Shown one piece after another: positions 17,259-41,248 of a stretch of 64,000 nt of DNA. The notes beneath the pieces were generated by a model. It worked only from the letters and a program-made list of their open reading frames with translations, made no database searches and was not told where the DNA came from. Source of the DNA: Escherichia phage phAPEC8; sequence record NC_020079.1. One strand, 5' to 3'. Made by a program: the position numbers and the translations under genes. Numbering within the stretch: the first letter of the stretch is position 1; the number at the start of each line of letters is the position of its first letter.

Positions 17259-17261
17259 TAA

Positions 17262-17295
17262 AAAAGGGAACCCGCAAAGGTTCCCTTTTCTTTTA
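17262..17295. terminator. Bidirectional intrinsic terminator between convergent modules
   Basis: AAAAGGGAACC-CGCAAA-GGTTCCCTTTT flanked by A-run and T-run; lies between the last + strand structural gene and the first - strand gene. Confidence 0.6.
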
Positions 17296-17321
17296 TAAAA
17301 ACTCTTTATAAATCAATAAGA

Positions 17322-18209
17322 TTAGAATGGGATATCATCGTCGAAGTCCATTGGAGGTTCTTCTTGATTGCTTGGAGTTGGTTCTGGTTGTGGTTCAGGT
17401 TTCTTCTCTTCTTTCTTCTCTTCTTTCTTAGGTTGTTCTGCGGAACCACGAATGGCAGCAGCAACTTTATCAGACAGAGCCAGAACTTTACGAGCAGAGT
17501 CAATCAGATCTTCTACAGATACAGTCTTAATGGTATGGTCTTTACAAGCATTGAGAATAGCGTGACCAACAGATGCCCCAAGATCATAATCATTAATATC
17601 AACGCCACGAGATTCAGCAATTTCAGATTTCAGCGTGACAGTTGCAGATTGAACAACCCCAGCGATATCGAAAGCATCGCCTTTAACACCATTACGAATC
17701 AGTTCCAGTGCACCATTTACTGCGTGACCAGTTTCCAGACCTACAGTATCACGTTTTTTATAGGACTGCTTAGGAGCAGCATCGTTGGAACCTTTATTGC
17801 CAGAAGATTTGTTAGACTTCTGAACACCATCGGTAGACAATACTGTAATACGAGATTTTTTAGTATTGTAGTAAGTCTTACCGCCTTTATTATCAACGCG
17901 ATCAATATCAATACTTACTTCTACACCTTTTTCAATAGTGATCCAATTATCACCTTCTTTGACTTGCAGGTTTTCATAACCTTCTTTCAGTTCAATGTCA
18001 CCAAGAGAAATCCAAACACCTTTCTCATCTGGTTTAGCACCTTTCTCTTTCAGAACAAGAGAAGCTCGGTGAGTTGAAACAATCGTTTTCCCTTCCCAAT
18101 GAAAAGTTTTAGGTTCAGCGAATTTATCCAGTTTAACGTAGTCTACGATACCAGTTGCATAAGTTACGGTTTTGCCTTTACGATCAGTTTCAGTATTAAT
18201 TACGGACAT
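17322..18209 (-). CDS. ssDNA-binding protein candidate with acidic C-terminal tail
   Basis: 295 aa; Lys/Glu/Pro-rich linker then C-terminus MDFDDDIPF identical in character to the bacterial SSB tail tip; adjacent to replication genes. Confidence 0.5.
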   Translation of the reverse strand: MSVINTETDRKGKTVTYATGIVDYVKLDKFAEPKTFHWEGKTIVSTHRASLVLKEKGAKPDEKGVWISLGDIELKEGYENLQVKEGDNWITIEKGVEVSIDIDRVDNKGGKTYYNTKKSRITVLSTDGVQKSNKSSGNKGSNDAAPKQSYKKRDTVGLETGHAVNGALELIRNGVKGDAFDIAGVVQSATVTLKSEIAESRGVDINDYDLGASVGHAILNACKDHTIKTVSVEDLIDSARKVLALSDKVAAAIRGSAEQPKKEEKKEEKKPEPQPEPTPSNQEEPPMDFDDDIPF

Positions 18210-18225
18210 TATTATCTCCTCTACA

Positions 18226-18618
18226 TTACATTAATTTTGCACAGAAAGAGCGGAGTCTTTCCATATCATCTTGCTCTAACAGGTATTTACCTTTACCTAT
18301 TCCAACTCCAATTTCACCATTAGGAAAATGAACTATTTGCACTGGGAAACCTCCGAGTTTAATTGTGGCAGCTTTGCCTTCTTCGTCTATAACGTTTCGG
18401 ATTGTATCTTGCAGTGAAATGAATTCTTTGTTTGTAACAGTGGTTTCAATTATTTCAGATGTTTCGACACGAGCAGTTAGCTTCTTGTTTCCACCTTGAA
18501 TAACCAAAATTTGAAAATAAAAAGAGTTGTCAAGACCTACAACATTTTTCTCAACTAGTGTCAAACTGGTATAGTTTCCATAAACAGTTTCAACAGCTAT
18601 CTTAGAACGTTCAGTCAT
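18226..18618 (-). CDS. Hypothetical protein
   Basis: 130 aa ORF, compact operon context. Confidence 0.35.
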   Translation of the reverse strand: MTERSKIAVETVYGNYTSLTLVEKNVVGLDNSFYFQILVIQGGNKKLTARVETSEIIETTVTNKEFISLQDTIRNVIDEEGKAATIKLGGFPVQIVHFPNGEIGVGIGKGKYLLEQDDMERLRSFCAKLM

Positions 18619-18663
18619 TGAATGCTATCCTATCATAAAATGTTTAATATTGTCAAGCTTTAA

Positions 18664-19257
18664 TTACCAAGGAATATCATCTTCTTCCAATCTGGTATCT
18701 ACTTGAGGTGGACGTGGAACCTTAACCTCTTTCACAAAACGAAGATATGGGAAACGTGTAGCAATTTTAATAACATGTTTGGCATCTTCTCTAACATCTT
18801 TGTGCAAGAAGCAGATCCCTGTTTCCAAGGTTGTTTCAAAATCTTTAGAATAATAACAGTCCTTCCCATCAAATGCAGCCTGGCAGATGGACAGATCGAA
18901 CTCATTTAGAAAGGTTGTCATTACGCTTGGTTCCATAATCATAAGGTTGCAAAGCTGACCATCACGTTCAAACTCAAAAACGTGTTTAAGACCAGTAACA
19001 CCTTCATAATTGTCAGAAGCCTCTTTGTTCCCTAGTTTACGAATATTGGTTCCCATTAAAGCAGATGCAATTAATCCTTGTATTTGTTCTTCAGTCCGAT
19101 GTGCAGGAAGGGATGTATAGAAATCCAGATCACGTCCAGCAATATCAAGAATACGCCAATCACGAACAGCACCGCCAGCCAAGACAGAATTAGGATCAGC
19201 GATCTTTAATATGGTAAGAATTTCTTTGGCAATATTGATTTGTTTTGATTTAGTCAT
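18664..19257 (-). CDS. Minimal class II nucleotidyltransferase (CCA-adding/poly(A) polymerase head-like)
   Basis: 197 aa; LAGGAVRDWRILDIAGRDLDFYT carries the GGAVRD signature and downstream D-x-D; C-terminus EEDDIPW. Confidence 0.5.
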   Translation of the reverse strand: MTKSKQINIAKEILTILKIADPNSVLAGGAVRDWRILDIAGRDLDFYTSLPAHRTEEQIQGLIASALMGTNIRKLGNKEASDNYEGVTGLKHVFEFERDGQLCNLMIMEPSVMTTFLNEFDLSICQAAFDGKDCYYSKDFETTLETGICFLHKDVREDAKHVIKIATRFPYLRFVKEVKVPRPPQVDTRLEEDDIPW

Positions 19258-19886: not shown

Positions 19887-22484
19887 TCAATGACAGGATG
19901 CCCAGGAATTACCCACATCATATCCGGCAGTAAGCTGAACATTAAGATTGTAAAATTCTCCAGCCTTAGTAACAGCTAAGGCAGCAAGTTCACCTGCCCG
20001 ACTATAGGCTGTAAACCATCCACCTTTGGGAGATTCATGAATGTTAGCCCAAATTTGTCCCGTCTCTTTTTCCTTATTATGCTTCCATTCTTCAACTTTA
20101 GCAAGGCATTCTTTATCAATTTTCTTTTGTTCTTCAGGATCGTCTACTTTCTTCCAACCTAACGATTCAGGTGAAAACCATTTGAATTCTACAAGGTTAC
20201 GAGAAACTTCAAGCTGGGCTTCATCGTGATATGCGATCATTTGTTGCACGAAGTCTTTATTCTTCCAGTCATCTTTAAAGAAGTCAACACTTAGTCCTTC
20301 TTCTTCGATCATGTCGTCATAAATAACCATTGCACGTTTAGCACAGATAACCCCACCACTTTGGAACAGAGAGTTAAGAATCGCGTGAGCAGAACGAGTA
20401 GGAACCTTACGACCGTCAATACCCAAAACATATTGTTTACCAGTCTTAACCCAGAAATCGTTTAAACGTTCTTTAAGACGCGCCAATGGGAATGCAGCTT
20501 CCCAGAAAGCATCGAACACCAATTGACCTGTAAACTTATCGCTACCAATTGTTTTAGCAACCTTGTCGGCTTGTGCACCATAGGTAATACCATACTTAAC
20601 AGATTTAGCAGGACTACGTTCAAATTTACGTCCAATAGTTTCAGTGATACGTTTTGCCATCATTGTGTGAACATCATTAGGTTTCTCTAACAGCAGAGCG
20701 TTACAATATTCGTGTGGCTCCGGCTCGTACCGCCAACAGTAGTGTGATTCAATTTTTGCTTCCAAAGAGTCGAAGTCGTAGCCGATCTGGAAGTATTTAG
20801 GAACCTCTACACCAAACAAGTTACGCATCTCCCATCCAAACAAAGATGTGACACGAGGAATATTAGCTACAGATCTATGCTTCATACGAGAGGTTGCAGC
20901 ATCACATGTAGCGGCTGGTGTAGGAATACGCCCATCCGCCCTTACTGCGGCTAAGAAACCTTTATCGTATTCTTGATCTTCTTCGTCTTCTTCCCAATCA
21001 GCACCGCCACCTAAAATAGAGTTCCTACGATGCTTATACGTTAAGTATTCTACAATCTGTGTAGCATAAGGGAATTTCTCACCCAAAGCTTGCAGGTTAG
21101 GACAGATTTCTTTTTCCTGACCTTTGGTAAAACATGGGTTAGTCAATACTTTAAGACCGCGACCTTTACCTTTTGCTATACGCTCTTGAATCTTCCTTTC
21201 CAAGGTTTCCGGTGTGCACTCCAGATGATCACAACGGTCCTGACAAAAATTAGAAGATAGAGTTTGCTCAACGTAAGCTCGAATACCTTTCTGAAGTTCT
21301 TCCTCGCTCTTTTTAATCTTGGTGCCAGATTTAAGAGTCAAGTCTTTATCTTTATATTCAGACGGTACCCAACCTAATCCTACAAGCCAGTTTTTAATAT
21401 GGGTTGTATCGTTCAATGTTGCAGGGATGTTAGGATCACACAGAGGCTCATCTGCTGCAACTGGCAGTTTCCACTCTTTCCCCAACATAACTAACCACCA
21501 ATCGCCATCCCTCTCTTCCAAATGACCATCATGTTTCTTAGCAAAATTGATCATATGGTTAGTTGGCTCTAAGTTCTTTTTAATTTGCAACTTAGGTGGA
21601 ATAAAAGCTTTAAGATAACCTTTTGTTGCTGGTTTAGGTGGCAAAATAGGCTCAACGAGTAAACGAAGACGCTCCATTTCTGCATCCAAAAAAGCAAGGT
21701 TCTCTTCTGCTTGTTTCATGTTAAAAGCAAACCCACGGTGTTCCTGGCGTGTAATAATGTCTGCTACACGTTGTTCAAGTTCAAATGGACCTTCCCATTT
21801 ATCATAATCACCCCATTCTTCCATAAGGTAATTATATACGCTCGTATTGGCTTTGTTGTCATAGATACAGTAATAAAGCATATCCGCAGCAAAAGTCTTA
21901 AATCGATCTTCTTCTGGAATCTCTTTACGGAAATCTATTTTTACATCACCACCTGCTTTTCGAGAAAGTGCTGCCAAGCTATGTCCTGATTTGCCCTCAA
22001 TCTTTCGATCTGGGTTTAACACTTTACTCAAAATCAAGGAGTCAATAAGTTTTACCTTATTTTTGCCCCACGTATTATATTTAACACTGTAATCTAATCC
22101 ATAAAACAGTTTTGTAGCCAACCAGTCGTAGTTGATACCGTTGTGAGCCACAGCCATTTCAACCAGATATTCAGGCTTGTCTTTAAAATAACCTTCATGA
22201 TTAATAAAATCTGGGAAATCTTTTAGTTGAAAATGTGTGTAATCTTGTGCCACATACTCTTTAAGAACATATGTGTATTTACCATCTGACTCTTCATAAG
22301 GACGCCCATCAAAGATGTATTTAGGGCCATCGTGGAAAGCTACTATTTCTCCTGTTTCATGGTTCTCTAAGACAATACAGTGCATTTGAAATGTGTCTTT
22401 GAGACGATAAGGACTAGCTAAATAATCAATAGTGTCATTATTCAACAATCCGTTTGCTTCAATATCCCATGTAAACTTACTCAC
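19887..22484 (-). CDS. Family A DNA polymerase, T7 gene 5-like
   Basis: 865 aa; N-terminal WDIEANGL (Exo I D-x-E); RSPAKSVKYGITYGAQ (motif B); IAYHDEAQLEV (motif C); C-terminus ...NSWASCH parallels T7 gp5 ...NWAICH. Confidence 0.85.
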   Translation of the reverse strand: MSKFTWDIEANGLLNNDTIDYLASPYRLKDTFQMHCIVLENHETGEIVAFHDGPKYIFDGRPYEESDGKYTYVLKEYVAQDYTHFQLKDFPDFINHEGYFKDKPEYLVEMAVAHNGINYDWLATKLFYGLDYSVKYNTWGKNKVKLIDSLILSKVLNPDRKIEGKSGHSLAALSRKAGGDVKIDFRKEIPEEDRFKTFAADMLYYCIYDNKANTSVYNYLMEEWGDYDKWEGPFELEQRVADIITRQEHRGFAFNMKQAEENLAFLDAEMERLRLLVEPILPPKPATKGYLKAFIPPKLQIKKNLEPTNHMINFAKKHDGHLEERDGDWWLVMLGKEWKLPVAADEPLCDPNIPATLNDTTHIKNWLVGLGWVPSEYKDKDLTLKSGTKIKKSEEELQKGIRAYVEQTLSSNFCQDRCDHLECTPETLERKIQERIAKGKGRGLKVLTNPCFTKGQEKEICPNLQALGEKFPYATQIVEYLTYKHRRNSILGGGADWEEDEEDQEYDKGFLAAVRADGRIPTPAATCDAATSRMKHRSVANIPRVTSLFGWEMRNLFGVEVPKYFQIGYDFDSLEAKIESHYCWRYEPEPHEYCNALLLEKPNDVHTMMAKRITETIGRKFERSPAKSVKYGITYGAQADKVAKTIGSDKFTGQLVFDAFWEAAFPLARLKERLNDFWVKTGKQYVLGIDGRKVPTRSAHAILNSLFQSGGVICAKRAMVIYDDMIEEEGLSVDFFKDDWKNKDFVQQMIAYHDEAQLEVSRNLVEFKWFSPESLGWKKVDDPEEQKKIDKECLAKVEEWKHNKEKETGQIWANIHESPKGGWFTAYSRAGELAALAVTKAGEFYNLNVQLTAGYDVGNSWASCH

Positions 22485-41056: not shown

Positions 41057-41248
41057 TTAAAATGGAAGTCTTTGAAGTTCATCTCCTCCGATATCAAGTA
41101 ATTTAGCAACATCTCGATCAGAAAGCAACTCTTTTCTTTGTAAAATATCCACAAGGGTTGCAAGAATGTCCTTAACGTCCCGATCACTGTTCTTCAAAAG
41201 TTCTCCTGCCGTCCCTACTCTATCTCCTACAGCAAAATATGTAACCAT
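41057..41248 (-). CDS. Hypothetical protein
   Basis: 63 aa ORF. Confidence 0.3.
   Translation of the reverse strand: MVTYFAVGDRVGTAGELLKNSDRDVKDILATLVDILQRKELLSDRDVAKLLDIGGDELQRLPF

Follow-up and report, generated by a model that had tools for sequence, protein, structure and literature searches.

Two proteins encoded in the replication module of this phage, a Phapecoctavirus (that is, a phAPEC8-like E. coli myovirus), carry an SSB-type tip at their C-terminus, and one of the two is an enzyme. Judging from the sequences, the tail of this enzyme is quite possibly a portable docking peptide of the SSB C-terminal tip (SSB-Ct) type, bringing it to the pockets which read SSB tips; we put this forward with some reserve. 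The first protein is SSB-like, 295 aa in length (17322–18209, minus strand, stop codon TAA at 17322–17324), and its C-terminus reads NQEEPPMDFDDDIPF (in short form …PSNQEEPPMDFDDDIPF). The second is a small nucleotidyltransferase (NTase) of 197 aa (18664–19257, minus strand, stop codon TAA at 18664–18666) which ends in PPQVDTRLEEDDIPW (…RLEEDDIPW). The initial annotation had described acidic-aromatic tails on both proteins; the ORF translations and a direct reading of the DNA agree, and the shared SSB-type tips are confirmed; the interpretation given there is borne out in part. Stop codons follow directly after IPF in the SSB-like protein and after IPW in the NTase, so that both tips lie at the extreme C-terminus and have a free alpha-carboxylate.

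Tips of this kind are rare. In the window, by which we mean the whole stretch of 64,000 nucleotides analyzed, translation of all six frames gives 261 ORFs with a length of 50 aa or more, and these two alone have at least three Asp or Glu residues among the last eight together with an aromatic end. One further window ORF possesses an [ILVM]P[FWY] end (…LQRLPF), which is non-acidic. Likewise, in the whole genome (149 kb) of phage anhysbys, a close relative with an NTase 100% identical to the window protein, an acidic plus IP[FW] end is found in these two only among 923 ORFs of at least 40 aa. No further tip-bearing protein was found in the ORF scans of the window and the anhysbys genome.

The window “SSB” is not a canonical SSB. 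In relatives it carries an SSB annotation. No match to the Pfam SSB domain was found in it, and the SSB models of NCBIfam (PRK09010) and PHROGs have their only matches at its C-terminal end, within residues ~246–295. It matches phrog_4477 at 6e-98 and is 35% identical, across both domains, to the family of rV5-like SSB-like proteins. Its AF2 model (mean pLDDT 82) is composed of an OB-like beta domain (residues 1–125), a disordered segment (133–149), a four-helix domain (156–253), a disordered linker rich in Pro, Glu and Lys, and the acidic tip. Foldseek, queried with the whole two-domain model, returned weak matches only; those of the beta domain were to OB folds (Ta0387 OB, Stn1 and TEBP; prob 0.95–0.99, E 0.05–0.2, low TM).

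The tip itself comprises residues 287–295 (MDFDDDIPF; 17325–17351, minus strand) and is residue for residue the C-terminal nonapeptide of E. coli SSB. Over its final 15 residues the host protein reads PSNEPPMDFDDDIPF (PMC7913777), to which the 15-residue end of the phage protein is near-identical. It is preceded by the linker (residues 254–286; 17352–17450, minus strand), which is modeled with pLDDT 43–67 and no secondary structure and varies in sequence and length among homologs. The tip is near-invariant across ~120 homolog clusters, and in 62 aligned homologs P294 and F295 are invariant and D290 and D292 at least 90% conserved. The claim that the SSB candidate ends in an acidic-aromatic tip thus stands, and the comparisons support its being a bona fide SSB-Ct tip.

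The NTase tail was compared in a set consisting of the window protein and nine homologs at 58–97% identity. Its tip, DDIPW (residues 193–197; 18667–18681, minus strand), is identical in 9–10 of the 10 at each position, while the linker in front of it (residues 178–192; 18682–18726, minus strand) is identical in only 2–7 of the 10 and differs in length. The AF2 model shows the tail without secondary structure, the mean pLDDT of successive 10-residue blocks from residue 171 being 92, 81 and 64. With a constant tip and some 15 preceding residues drifting, the tail behaves like a short linear motif. Its conservation in homologs, upon which the earlier proposal had been made to depend, has therefore been checked: DDIPW is kept as the linker drifts. 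Some homologs come even closer to the DFDDDIPF of the SSB, ending in DF[EQ]DDIPW (DFEDDIPW, DFQDDIPW). Measured against the SSB-Ct consensus D-D-D-I-P-F, the SSB-like protein is exact (MDFDDDIPF) and the NTase reads E-D-D-I-P-W, with Trp in 10/10 of those compared. The last residue is always Trp in the NTase of this clade and Phe in the SSBs, which means that the two tails need not be interchangeable.

The same type of end recurs among remote relatives. [ILV]P[FWY] ends occur, against 0.14 expected, in eight of 147 distant representatives of the NTase family, each less than 50% identical to the others and 22–37% identical pairwise. This is ~55 times expectation (Poisson 4e-12; Fisher 9e-7 against genome ORFs), figures which take cluster representatives as independent and which shared ancestry would weaken. 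The tip-bearing members occupy at least five places in a rough NJ tree, some of them (L014, L016) bear IP[FWY] tips in unrelated phage contexts, and a further search added two tips, …DKPIPF on P0287 (a close relative of P0273) and …NNIPF on P0340. It is most improbable, therefore, that we are looking at a chance resemblance of two unrelated acidic C-termini which both happen to end in IP-aromatic. The stretch in common is admittedly short (D-D-I-P plus an aromatic) and the coding DNA dissimilar, but chance would account neither for a conserved tip behind a drifting linker, nor for this recurrence, nor for the uniqueness of the two tips in the genome. The longest DNA word common to both tails is 8 nt (gatgatat), which speaks against any recent DNA duplication; the idea that the NTase gene had lately acquired a copy of the SSB 3′ end was rejected on this ground.

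Exceptions exist. The syntenic NTase orthologs of phi92 (…EEFKI) and KP13-26 (…LDNAWDHL) are without the tip, and many members of a sister clade have another acidic-aromatic tail, …LDDAWDDDNF; the tip is thus dispensable or replaceable. Across the family as a whole the acidic-aromatic ends differ in sequence (…EDFEF, …DDAWDDDNF and …PWDEEF). Strict co-variation of the NTase tip with the state of the SSB tip was looked for and not found among the following relatives: PsgM04F and L023 have a capped SSB and an NTase with the tip, KP13-26 a free SSB tip and an NTase that lacks it, and phi92 a capped SSB and again no NTase tip.

If the NTase tail is a docking peptide, the terminal aromatic and free carboxylate of its tip would insert into the hydrophobic, basic-rimmed pocket that reads …DDDIPF. 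The catalytic domain would thereby be tethered to one of the clients of SSB, the likeliest candidates being the host's own SSB-interacting proteins and defence nucleases or helicases at ssDNA. There it might perform nucleotidyl transfer on the partner or on a nucleic-acid end in the partner's grip, or simply occupy the pocket. The host-identical tip of the SSB-like protein would, for its part, plug phage ssDNA into the same network of clients. In crystal structures of ExoI and RecO with SSB-Ct only (D)IPF is resolved, and when the terminal Phe is exchanged for a bulkier, substituted phenylalanine binding is retained or even improved (PMC10143822). Since the pocket tolerates bulkier last residues, Trp is plausible at the end of the NTase tip; that this NTase clade ends in W and never in F suggests, on the other hand, that the pocket may differ from the SSB-reading ones. 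A literature search returned no report of an SSB-Ct-type tail on a non-SSB phage enzyme, and “DDIPW” gave no relevant paper.

The two genes are separated by one other. This conserved gene of 130 aa (18226–18618, minus strand) matches phrog_16560 at 1e-76, has no match in Pfam, NCBIfam or PADLOC, and is syntenic in phi92 (gp157), KP13-26 and locus L013. Just upstream of it is a promoter-like site, TTGACA-18-TAGGAT (TG-extended; 18627–18656, minus strand), with 10/12 consensus matches; since the region as a whole has no more sites of this kind than shuffled sequence, the evidence for it is weak. A hairpin terminator (17262–17289, no strand assigned) lies between the SSB-like gene and a convergent tail-protein gene. 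The order Pol-…-NTase-130aa-SSB within the replication module is kept down to 35% identity, and other NTase family members adjoin primase/helicase and PolB genes or sit near a DNA ligase gene. A search of viral contigs for related loci yielded six, too few for a co-occurrence study. In anhysbys a 361-aa ORF ending in …DDEELDF adjoins the gene for the large subunit of ribonucleotide reductase and is read, by position alone, as the RNR small subunit.

Bacteriophage T7 offers a precedent for shared tails: its gp2.5 and gp4 each have an acidic tail with a terminal Phe, and gp5/thioredoxin is bound by both. By analogy the two tails might dock on the same site of one of the phage's own replication proteins, be it family A polymerase, primase-helicase or UvrD-type helicase, the NTase being a replisome accessory that acts on the 3′ ends of phage DNA or primers. 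The position of the NTase gene between those for polymerase and SSB, the replication genes next to other family members and the uniqueness of the two tips in the genome would all suit this arrangement, which we nevertheless regard as rather unlikely. Tips occur in unrelated phage contexts, for which one host-wide pocket is a simpler explanation than many phage polymerases; phi92 and KP13-26 retain the module without the NTase tip; and one relative, with an SSB 99% identical to that of the window, has a further 15 residues capping the SSB tip, the NTase tip there being free. The capped protein suggests that replication may proceed without a free SSB tip.

The “minimal nucleotidyltransferase” of the initial annotation is an apt description. 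The 197-aa protein is predicted from its model (pLDDT 93.6) to consist of just the head and neck of the class II CCA-adding enzyme/poly(A) polymerase (PAP) fold, full enzymes being ~400 aa in length. Its best Foldseek matches in the PDB are class II CCA- and A-adding enzymes and PAP (E 3e-5, TMq 0.50–0.58), including 3wfp, 3aql, 3h3a and 5hc9 (E 3e-5 to 1e-3 over ~178–210 alignment columns). These targets are of ~350–460 aa (TMt 0.27–0.32), and their body and tail domains are missing from the phage protein. Catalytic motif A, GGAVRDW…DLD (G28–D45; 19123–19176, minus strand), aligns to motif A of the CCA-adding enzymes, 6ibp among them, and all 107 family members compared keep its residues G28, G29, D43 and D45. 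The third-carboxylate position, E95, is Glu in just 58 of the 107. Motifs B (RRD) and D (EDxxR) of the CCA-adding enzymes were placed by their expected positions rather than by superposition; in columns so placed no conserved RR or EDxxR is present among the 107 members, the putative motif B reading xxF[DPS]x[S][I][C] and residues 157–161 being variable (H/Y161). The protein matches phrog_10174 at 8e-63. It has no family above threshold in Pfam and NCBIfam and zero matches in PADLOC; Pfam PolyA_pol (PF01743) scores 13.9 bits, below the cut-off of 23, and is matched at E≤0.01 by only 16 of the 107 family members.

GenBank annotates proteins of this kind as tRNA 3′-end repair enzyme or poly(A) polymerase, and were the NTase an ordinary enzyme of that class its tail would have an unrelated or minor role. 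The structural matches and the common motif A speak for this, as does the possession by the phage of 10 tRNA genes and of RNA ligase genes. Yet we consider it improbable: besides the missing domains, the sub-threshold PolyA_pol score and the unconserved columns at the expected positions of motifs B and D, the gene resides in the replication module away from the tRNA genes, and the conserved tail would be left without explanation. In the relative, CCA is already encoded by each of the 10 tRNA genes, which on the circular map lie at a distance of ~40 kb from that of the NTase, and no tRNA genes were found in the window; CCA addition for the maturation of phage tRNAs was accordingly rejected.

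Profile comparisons show the NTase to be a homolog of the catalytic domain found in Gad2, an anti-Gabija protein: hhalign pairs it with B. subtilis Gad2 (94.6%, E 6e-8) and with the experimentally verified Brevibacillus Gad2 (94.3%, E 1e-7). The alignment covers residues 16–142 of Gad2 only, that is, ~120 residues of the catalytic domain, and the C-terminal ~260 residues of Gad2 are missing from the NTase. Gad2 sequences from the supplement of the original paper were used for this comparison because the Pfam search gave no match to PF26128; precomputed PF26128 assignments do exist for P0009, which is 60% identical to the window NTase, and for most family members, and are graded “faint” where graded. 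Gad2, itself an NTase of phage origin, overcomes Gabija and proved toxic on expression (bioRxiv 10.1101/2023.05.01.538930; PMC12904381). No mechanistic work on its action against Gabija was found in the literature since 2023. By analogy with Gad2, the NTase would serve in counter-defence or in the take-over of host DNA metabolism rather than in tRNA maturation.

Acidic tails may also act upon the protein that bears them, as those of E. coli SSB, T4 gp32 and T7 gp2.5 fold onto their own DNA-binding surfaces. The NTase tail could in the same way lie as a pseudo-substrate on the enzyme's own basic groove, in which nucleic acid or NTP is bound, keeping a potentially toxic enzyme off until the tail is displaced. 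Related small phage NTases and Gad2 are indeed toxic on expression (PMC7291057; bioRxiv 10.1101/2023.05.01.538930), and the varied acidic-aromatic tails of the family fit a loosely specified electrostatic function. Strict I-P-W invariance and the coincidence with a known intermolecular motif, however, exceed what an electrostatic shield needs, and the AF2 tail has no secondary structure and intermediate confidence only, which leads us to think such self-regulation doubtful.

The docking reading may be carried one step further, to a proposal we regard as speculative and, on balance, unlikely. Gad2-like mini-NTases in general would be guided enzymes, in which a swappable C-terminal peptide (in this phage one that imitates the host SSB tip, and in sister clades acidic-aromatic tails of other kinds) brings the catalytic domain to a specific host protein. 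The target in the present case would be a protein at ssDNA that reads the SSB tip, whether nuclease, helicase or immune sensor. Either this protein or the DNA or RNA 3′ end in its grip would be nucleotidylated, and the protein thereby disarmed. If this were true, mimicry of the SSB tip would be a delivery device for anti-defence enzymes and would offer a handle on the mechanism of Gad2.

In bacterial DNA metabolism the SSB tip serves as the chief address label, and Nhi, retron Eco8 and Hachiman are listed as defence systems that detect phage SSBs. Phage SSB-like proteins with the host tip are already known; here the label sits on a non-SSB enzyme. Should the enzyme truly use it, phages would also deliver catalytic activities to SSB clients. 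The tail thus provides a concrete bait for the target of a widespread family of small phage NTases, the one to which Gad2 belongs.

Among the closest parallels is E. coli SSB-Ct (MDFDDDIPF), a hub for more than 17 SSB-interacting proteins. The phage SSB-like protein shares with it the identical nine residues, the near-identical 15-mer and a disordered linker, and the NTase a D-D-I-P-aromatic sequence at a free C-terminus after a disordered linker. Unlike the host protein, the phage carrier of the full tip is a non-canonical protein that combines an OB-like with a helical domain and lacks the Pfam SSB domain. The NTase does not belong to the ssDNA-binding proteins and ends in Trp. The T7 pair resembles the present one in that acidic tails with a terminal aromatic are found on an SSB and also on another protein of the replication module, suggesting a common docking site. 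The two pairs are not homologous: the tails in T7 are of a type other than IPF, their partner is gp5/thioredoxin, and the second protein is here an NTase. With the class II tRNA nucleotidyltransferases and PAP I (PF01743) the window NTase has the head-and-neck fold and motif A (GG…DxD) in common; it is half their size, is without body and tail domains, falls below the Pfam threshold and has motifs B and D unconserved.

Among phage proteins, Gp22 of Klebsiella phage fHe-Kpn01 is a toxic NTase-like protein of 182 aa (PMC7291057). Likened here by description, it is similarly small and has CCA-enzyme-like motifs at the same positions (~29, 44), but no tail has been reported for it; it indicates that mini-NTases can act on host targets (PMC7291057). 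Gad2 (PF26128; phage SPbetaL7, Brevibacillus prophage) is likewise phage-encoded and has the homologous catalytic NTase domain, with motifs AGGA…D.D.Y and F.FD.[ST][IV]C in common; it differs in its size of ~400 aa, in the large C-terminal region that the window NTase lacks, and in having no SSB-like tip. Finally, Bas52_0087 is an rV5-like SSB-like protein with an FDDDIPF tip which triggers the DRT10 defence system (bioRxiv 10.64898/2026.04.29.721553). It apparently belongs to the same protein family as the window SSB-like protein, a comparison made not with the Bas52_0087 sequence itself but via a 415-aa relative that is ~72% identical to rV5-like phage proteins and 35% identical to the window protein over the N-terminal and helical domains. 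The rV5-like proteins possess an extra OB domain, and a tip-bearing NTase does not figure in that report; Bas52_0087 and the SSB-like protein of this phage nevertheless carry the same tip, each being a phage-encoded mimic of that of the host SSB.

Two minus-strand ORFs of the window, encoding a 295-aa SSB-like protein (17322–18209) and a 197-aa small nucleotidyltransferase (NTase; 18664–19257), terminate in …PSNQEEPPMDFDDDIPF and …RLEEDDIPW, respectively. These ends bear out the initial annotation, which had proposed similar acidic-aromatic tails on an SSB candidate and a nucleotidyltransferase. The C-terminus of E. coli SSB is PSNEPPMDFDDDIPF, the last nine residues of which form the "acidic tip" to which over 17 partner proteins are recruited (PMC7913777). 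Since the last nine residues of the phage SSB-like protein match those of E. coli SSB, the host tip has been copied exactly. The DNA encoding the two phage tails has just eight bases in common, so neither tail is a recent copy of the other. Only these two of the window's 261 ORFs of 50 aa or more possess an acidic, aromatic-terminated end; phage anhysbys has an identical NTase, and its complete genome, with 923 ORFs of 40 aa or more, likewise shows an acidic end with IP[FW] in these two alone. A 63-aa ORF (41057–41248, minus strand) ends …GGDELQRLPF, a non-acidic tail whose LPF is taken as a chance match. The small subunit of ribonucleotide reductase typically binds the large subunit through an acidic C-terminal tail; a 361-aa anhysbys ORF (locus L018, 38705–39790) which ends …LSDDEELDF adjoins the gene for the large subunit, and its end is taken as that tail rather than an SSB-type tip.

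The region is 98–99% identical over 5.5 kb to genomes of Phapecoctavirus, the phAPEC8-like E. coli myoviruses of the Stephanstirmvirinae. Based upon the annotation of these relatives the minus-strand order is family A DNA polymerase, three small ORFs, "tRNA nucleotidyl transferase / poly(A) polymerase", hypothetical protein and "single-stranded DNA-binding protein", the block being convergent with the tail genes. In every case, from the window to relatives with 35% NTase identity, a gene for a 130-aa protein (18226–18618, minus strand; phrog_16560) lies between the NTase and SSB-like genes; its product has no match in Pfam, NCBIfam or PADLOC. The polymerase gene measures 2598 nt in the window (19887–22484) versus 3300–3333 nt in several relatives, both close and distant (loci L010 3388–6720, L017 3565–6897, L002 1522–4836 and L013 4285–7584), owing to a ~245-aa insertion in the latter, possibly an intein. 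The relative at locus L023 has an additional 198-aa ORF directly after this gene.

The AlphaFold2 model of the NTase (107 sequences, pLDDT 93.6) displays a compact domain and, from about residue 178, an unstructured tail. In structure it comes closest to class II CCA-adding, A-adding and poly(A) polymerase enzymes; because the matches span nearly the whole query and only about half of each target, the NTase is a head and neck without body and tail domains. Sequence likeness to these enzymes is confined to motif A, and Pfam PolyA_pol scored under threshold. An exhaustive search yielded a family of 265 cluster representatives, mostly of ~175–240 aa, in which G28, G29, D43 and D45 are invariant and AGGA[PV]RDW, F120, S123-I124-C125, K164 and F169-P170 nearly so; members elsewhere likewise have replication or early genes as neighbours. 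Many comparable small proteins from phages are present in BFVD, most of them unnamed. Many family members carry a precomputed match to Pfam PF26128 "Gad2", faint wherever graded, and two Gad2 sequences published with the discovery of that protein both aligned to the family profile along ~120 residues of the catalytic domain, at 94% probability (E 6e-8 and 1e-7). Gabija defence is cancelled by Gad2, a nucleotidyltransferase-like phage protein of which the SPbetaL7 copy is toxic on expression (bioRxiv 10.1101/2023.05.01.538930); a 2026 review (PMC12904381) still gives the mechanism of Gad2 as unknown.

The tip is also kept in NTase homologs, as alignment of the window protein with nine of them (58–97% identity) revealed: the last five positions are identical in 9–10 of 10, the preceding fifteen in 2–7 of 10 with a linker of variable length. 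Several homologs end DFEDDIPW or DFQDDIPW, reproducing nearly the whole of DFDDDIPF, and at locus L013 (35% identity) FPDDIPW is retained in the same gene order. Among 147 distant cluster representatives eight end in [ILV]P[FWY], 0.14 being expected from composition; they are 22–37% identical among themselves and are scattered over five or more positions of a rough tree. Further searching of the family added two such ends. The orthologs of phi92 and KP13-26 are without the tip, and many of their relatives carry a different acidic-aromatic end, …LDDAWDDDNF; the sister-clade consensus is [KR]KK[ST]LD[DE]AWD[DE](D)N[FI] (P0298–P0300, P0303, P0321, P0297 and KP13-26 [L003 4989–5705]). Other ends include …EDFEF, …DEVAF and …PWDEEF. 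Short acidic-aromatic ends on a flexible linker, frequent in the family and changing between lineages, are the pattern expected of a docking motif and not of chance. The family seems to exchange C-terminal peptides, the SSB-type tip being one recurrent option.

A protein bearing the SSB tip is recognized by those with an SSB-tip pocket, and is not thereby drawn to SSB or DNA. We favour, as the mechanism inferred for the NTase tail, a putative delivery in which it would carry the Gad2-like catalytic domain to a host-side SSB client. In the pocket structures of ExoI and RecO only the (D)IPF residues are resolved, and bulkier substituted phenylalanines in the terminal position bind equally well or better (PMC10143822), which makes a terminal Trp plausible there. 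The main rival is that the tail would dock on the phage replisome, by analogy with T7; a lesser one is that it would inhibit its own enzyme. A role in tRNA maturation, as the relatives' annotation implies, is not favoured, since all tRNAs in a relative's genome encode CCA, their genes are far from that of the NTase, and the enzyme lacks body and tail domains.

The SSB-like protein lacks a Pfam SSB domain, and SSB models align with only its last ~40–50 residues. Its AlphaFold2 model (62 homologs, pLDDT 82) comprises a beta-rich domain (1–125) with weak OB-fold matches, a disordered stretch, a four-helix domain (156–253) and a disordered C-terminal linker. Nearly all of ~120 homolog clusters end D-[FD]-D-D-D-I-P-F. 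In 16 of the 120 listed, 14–17 further residues follow …DDDIPF (e.g. APIGLQYGRNFLHCF), with the conserved sequence [AS]P[ILV]GLQY… (L023 4001–5399; L012 5064–6483; L002 6026–6973); the L023 homolog is 99% identical to the window's protein, and window 17259–17324 has no extension. In L023 and phage PsgM04F a 164-aa ORF begins 20 nt past the IPF codon, overlapping the extension; it is annotated "endonuclease" in PsgM04F and judged by us, on sequence motifs, to be an HNH homing endonuclease. In phage phiWec190 the copy is truncated and the SSB stop normal; phi92 has the extension and then a methyltransferase gene. The position of the endonuclease ORF suggests that a homing-endonuclease cassette was inserted at the gene's conserved 3' end, capping the tip, the terminal carboxylate of which the extension would bury. 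The NTase DDIPW of L023 remains free. Either the cap comes off or does no harm, or a free SSB tip is dispensable for these phages. The latter would speak mildly against an essential, T7-like role of the SSB tip. Delivery to a host-side client is open to direct testing.

The SSB-like protein shares 35% identity, in its N-terminal and helical domains, with a 415-aa relative which is itself ~72% identical to rV5-like phage proteins. Bas52_0087, an rV5-like protein of the same kind with the same FDDDIPF tip, is required for triggering DRT10 defence and has been connected with exonuclease I (2026 preprint, bioRxiv 10.64898/2026.04.29.721553); by this precedent phage SSB-like proteins bearing the host tip are already known. 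The helical domain opens with a nearly invariant D154-x-x-G-x-E-T-G-H (D154, 17748–17750), aligning with D254-PIGVETGH of the 415-aa relative, and the DRT10 escape substitution D252V reported in Bas52_0087 (bioRxiv 10.64898/2026.04.29.721553) may fall at the equivalent aspartate. The Gad2-like family is already in Pfam; the SSB-type tip upon it, and its recurrence, are apparently unreported in the literature searched. As with SPbetaL7 Gad2, toxicity has been reported, in E. coli, for a 182-aa protein with CCA-enzyme-like motifs from Klebsiella phage fHe-Kpn01 (PMC7291057). We rate the tip-bearing NTase as extending an already known principle.
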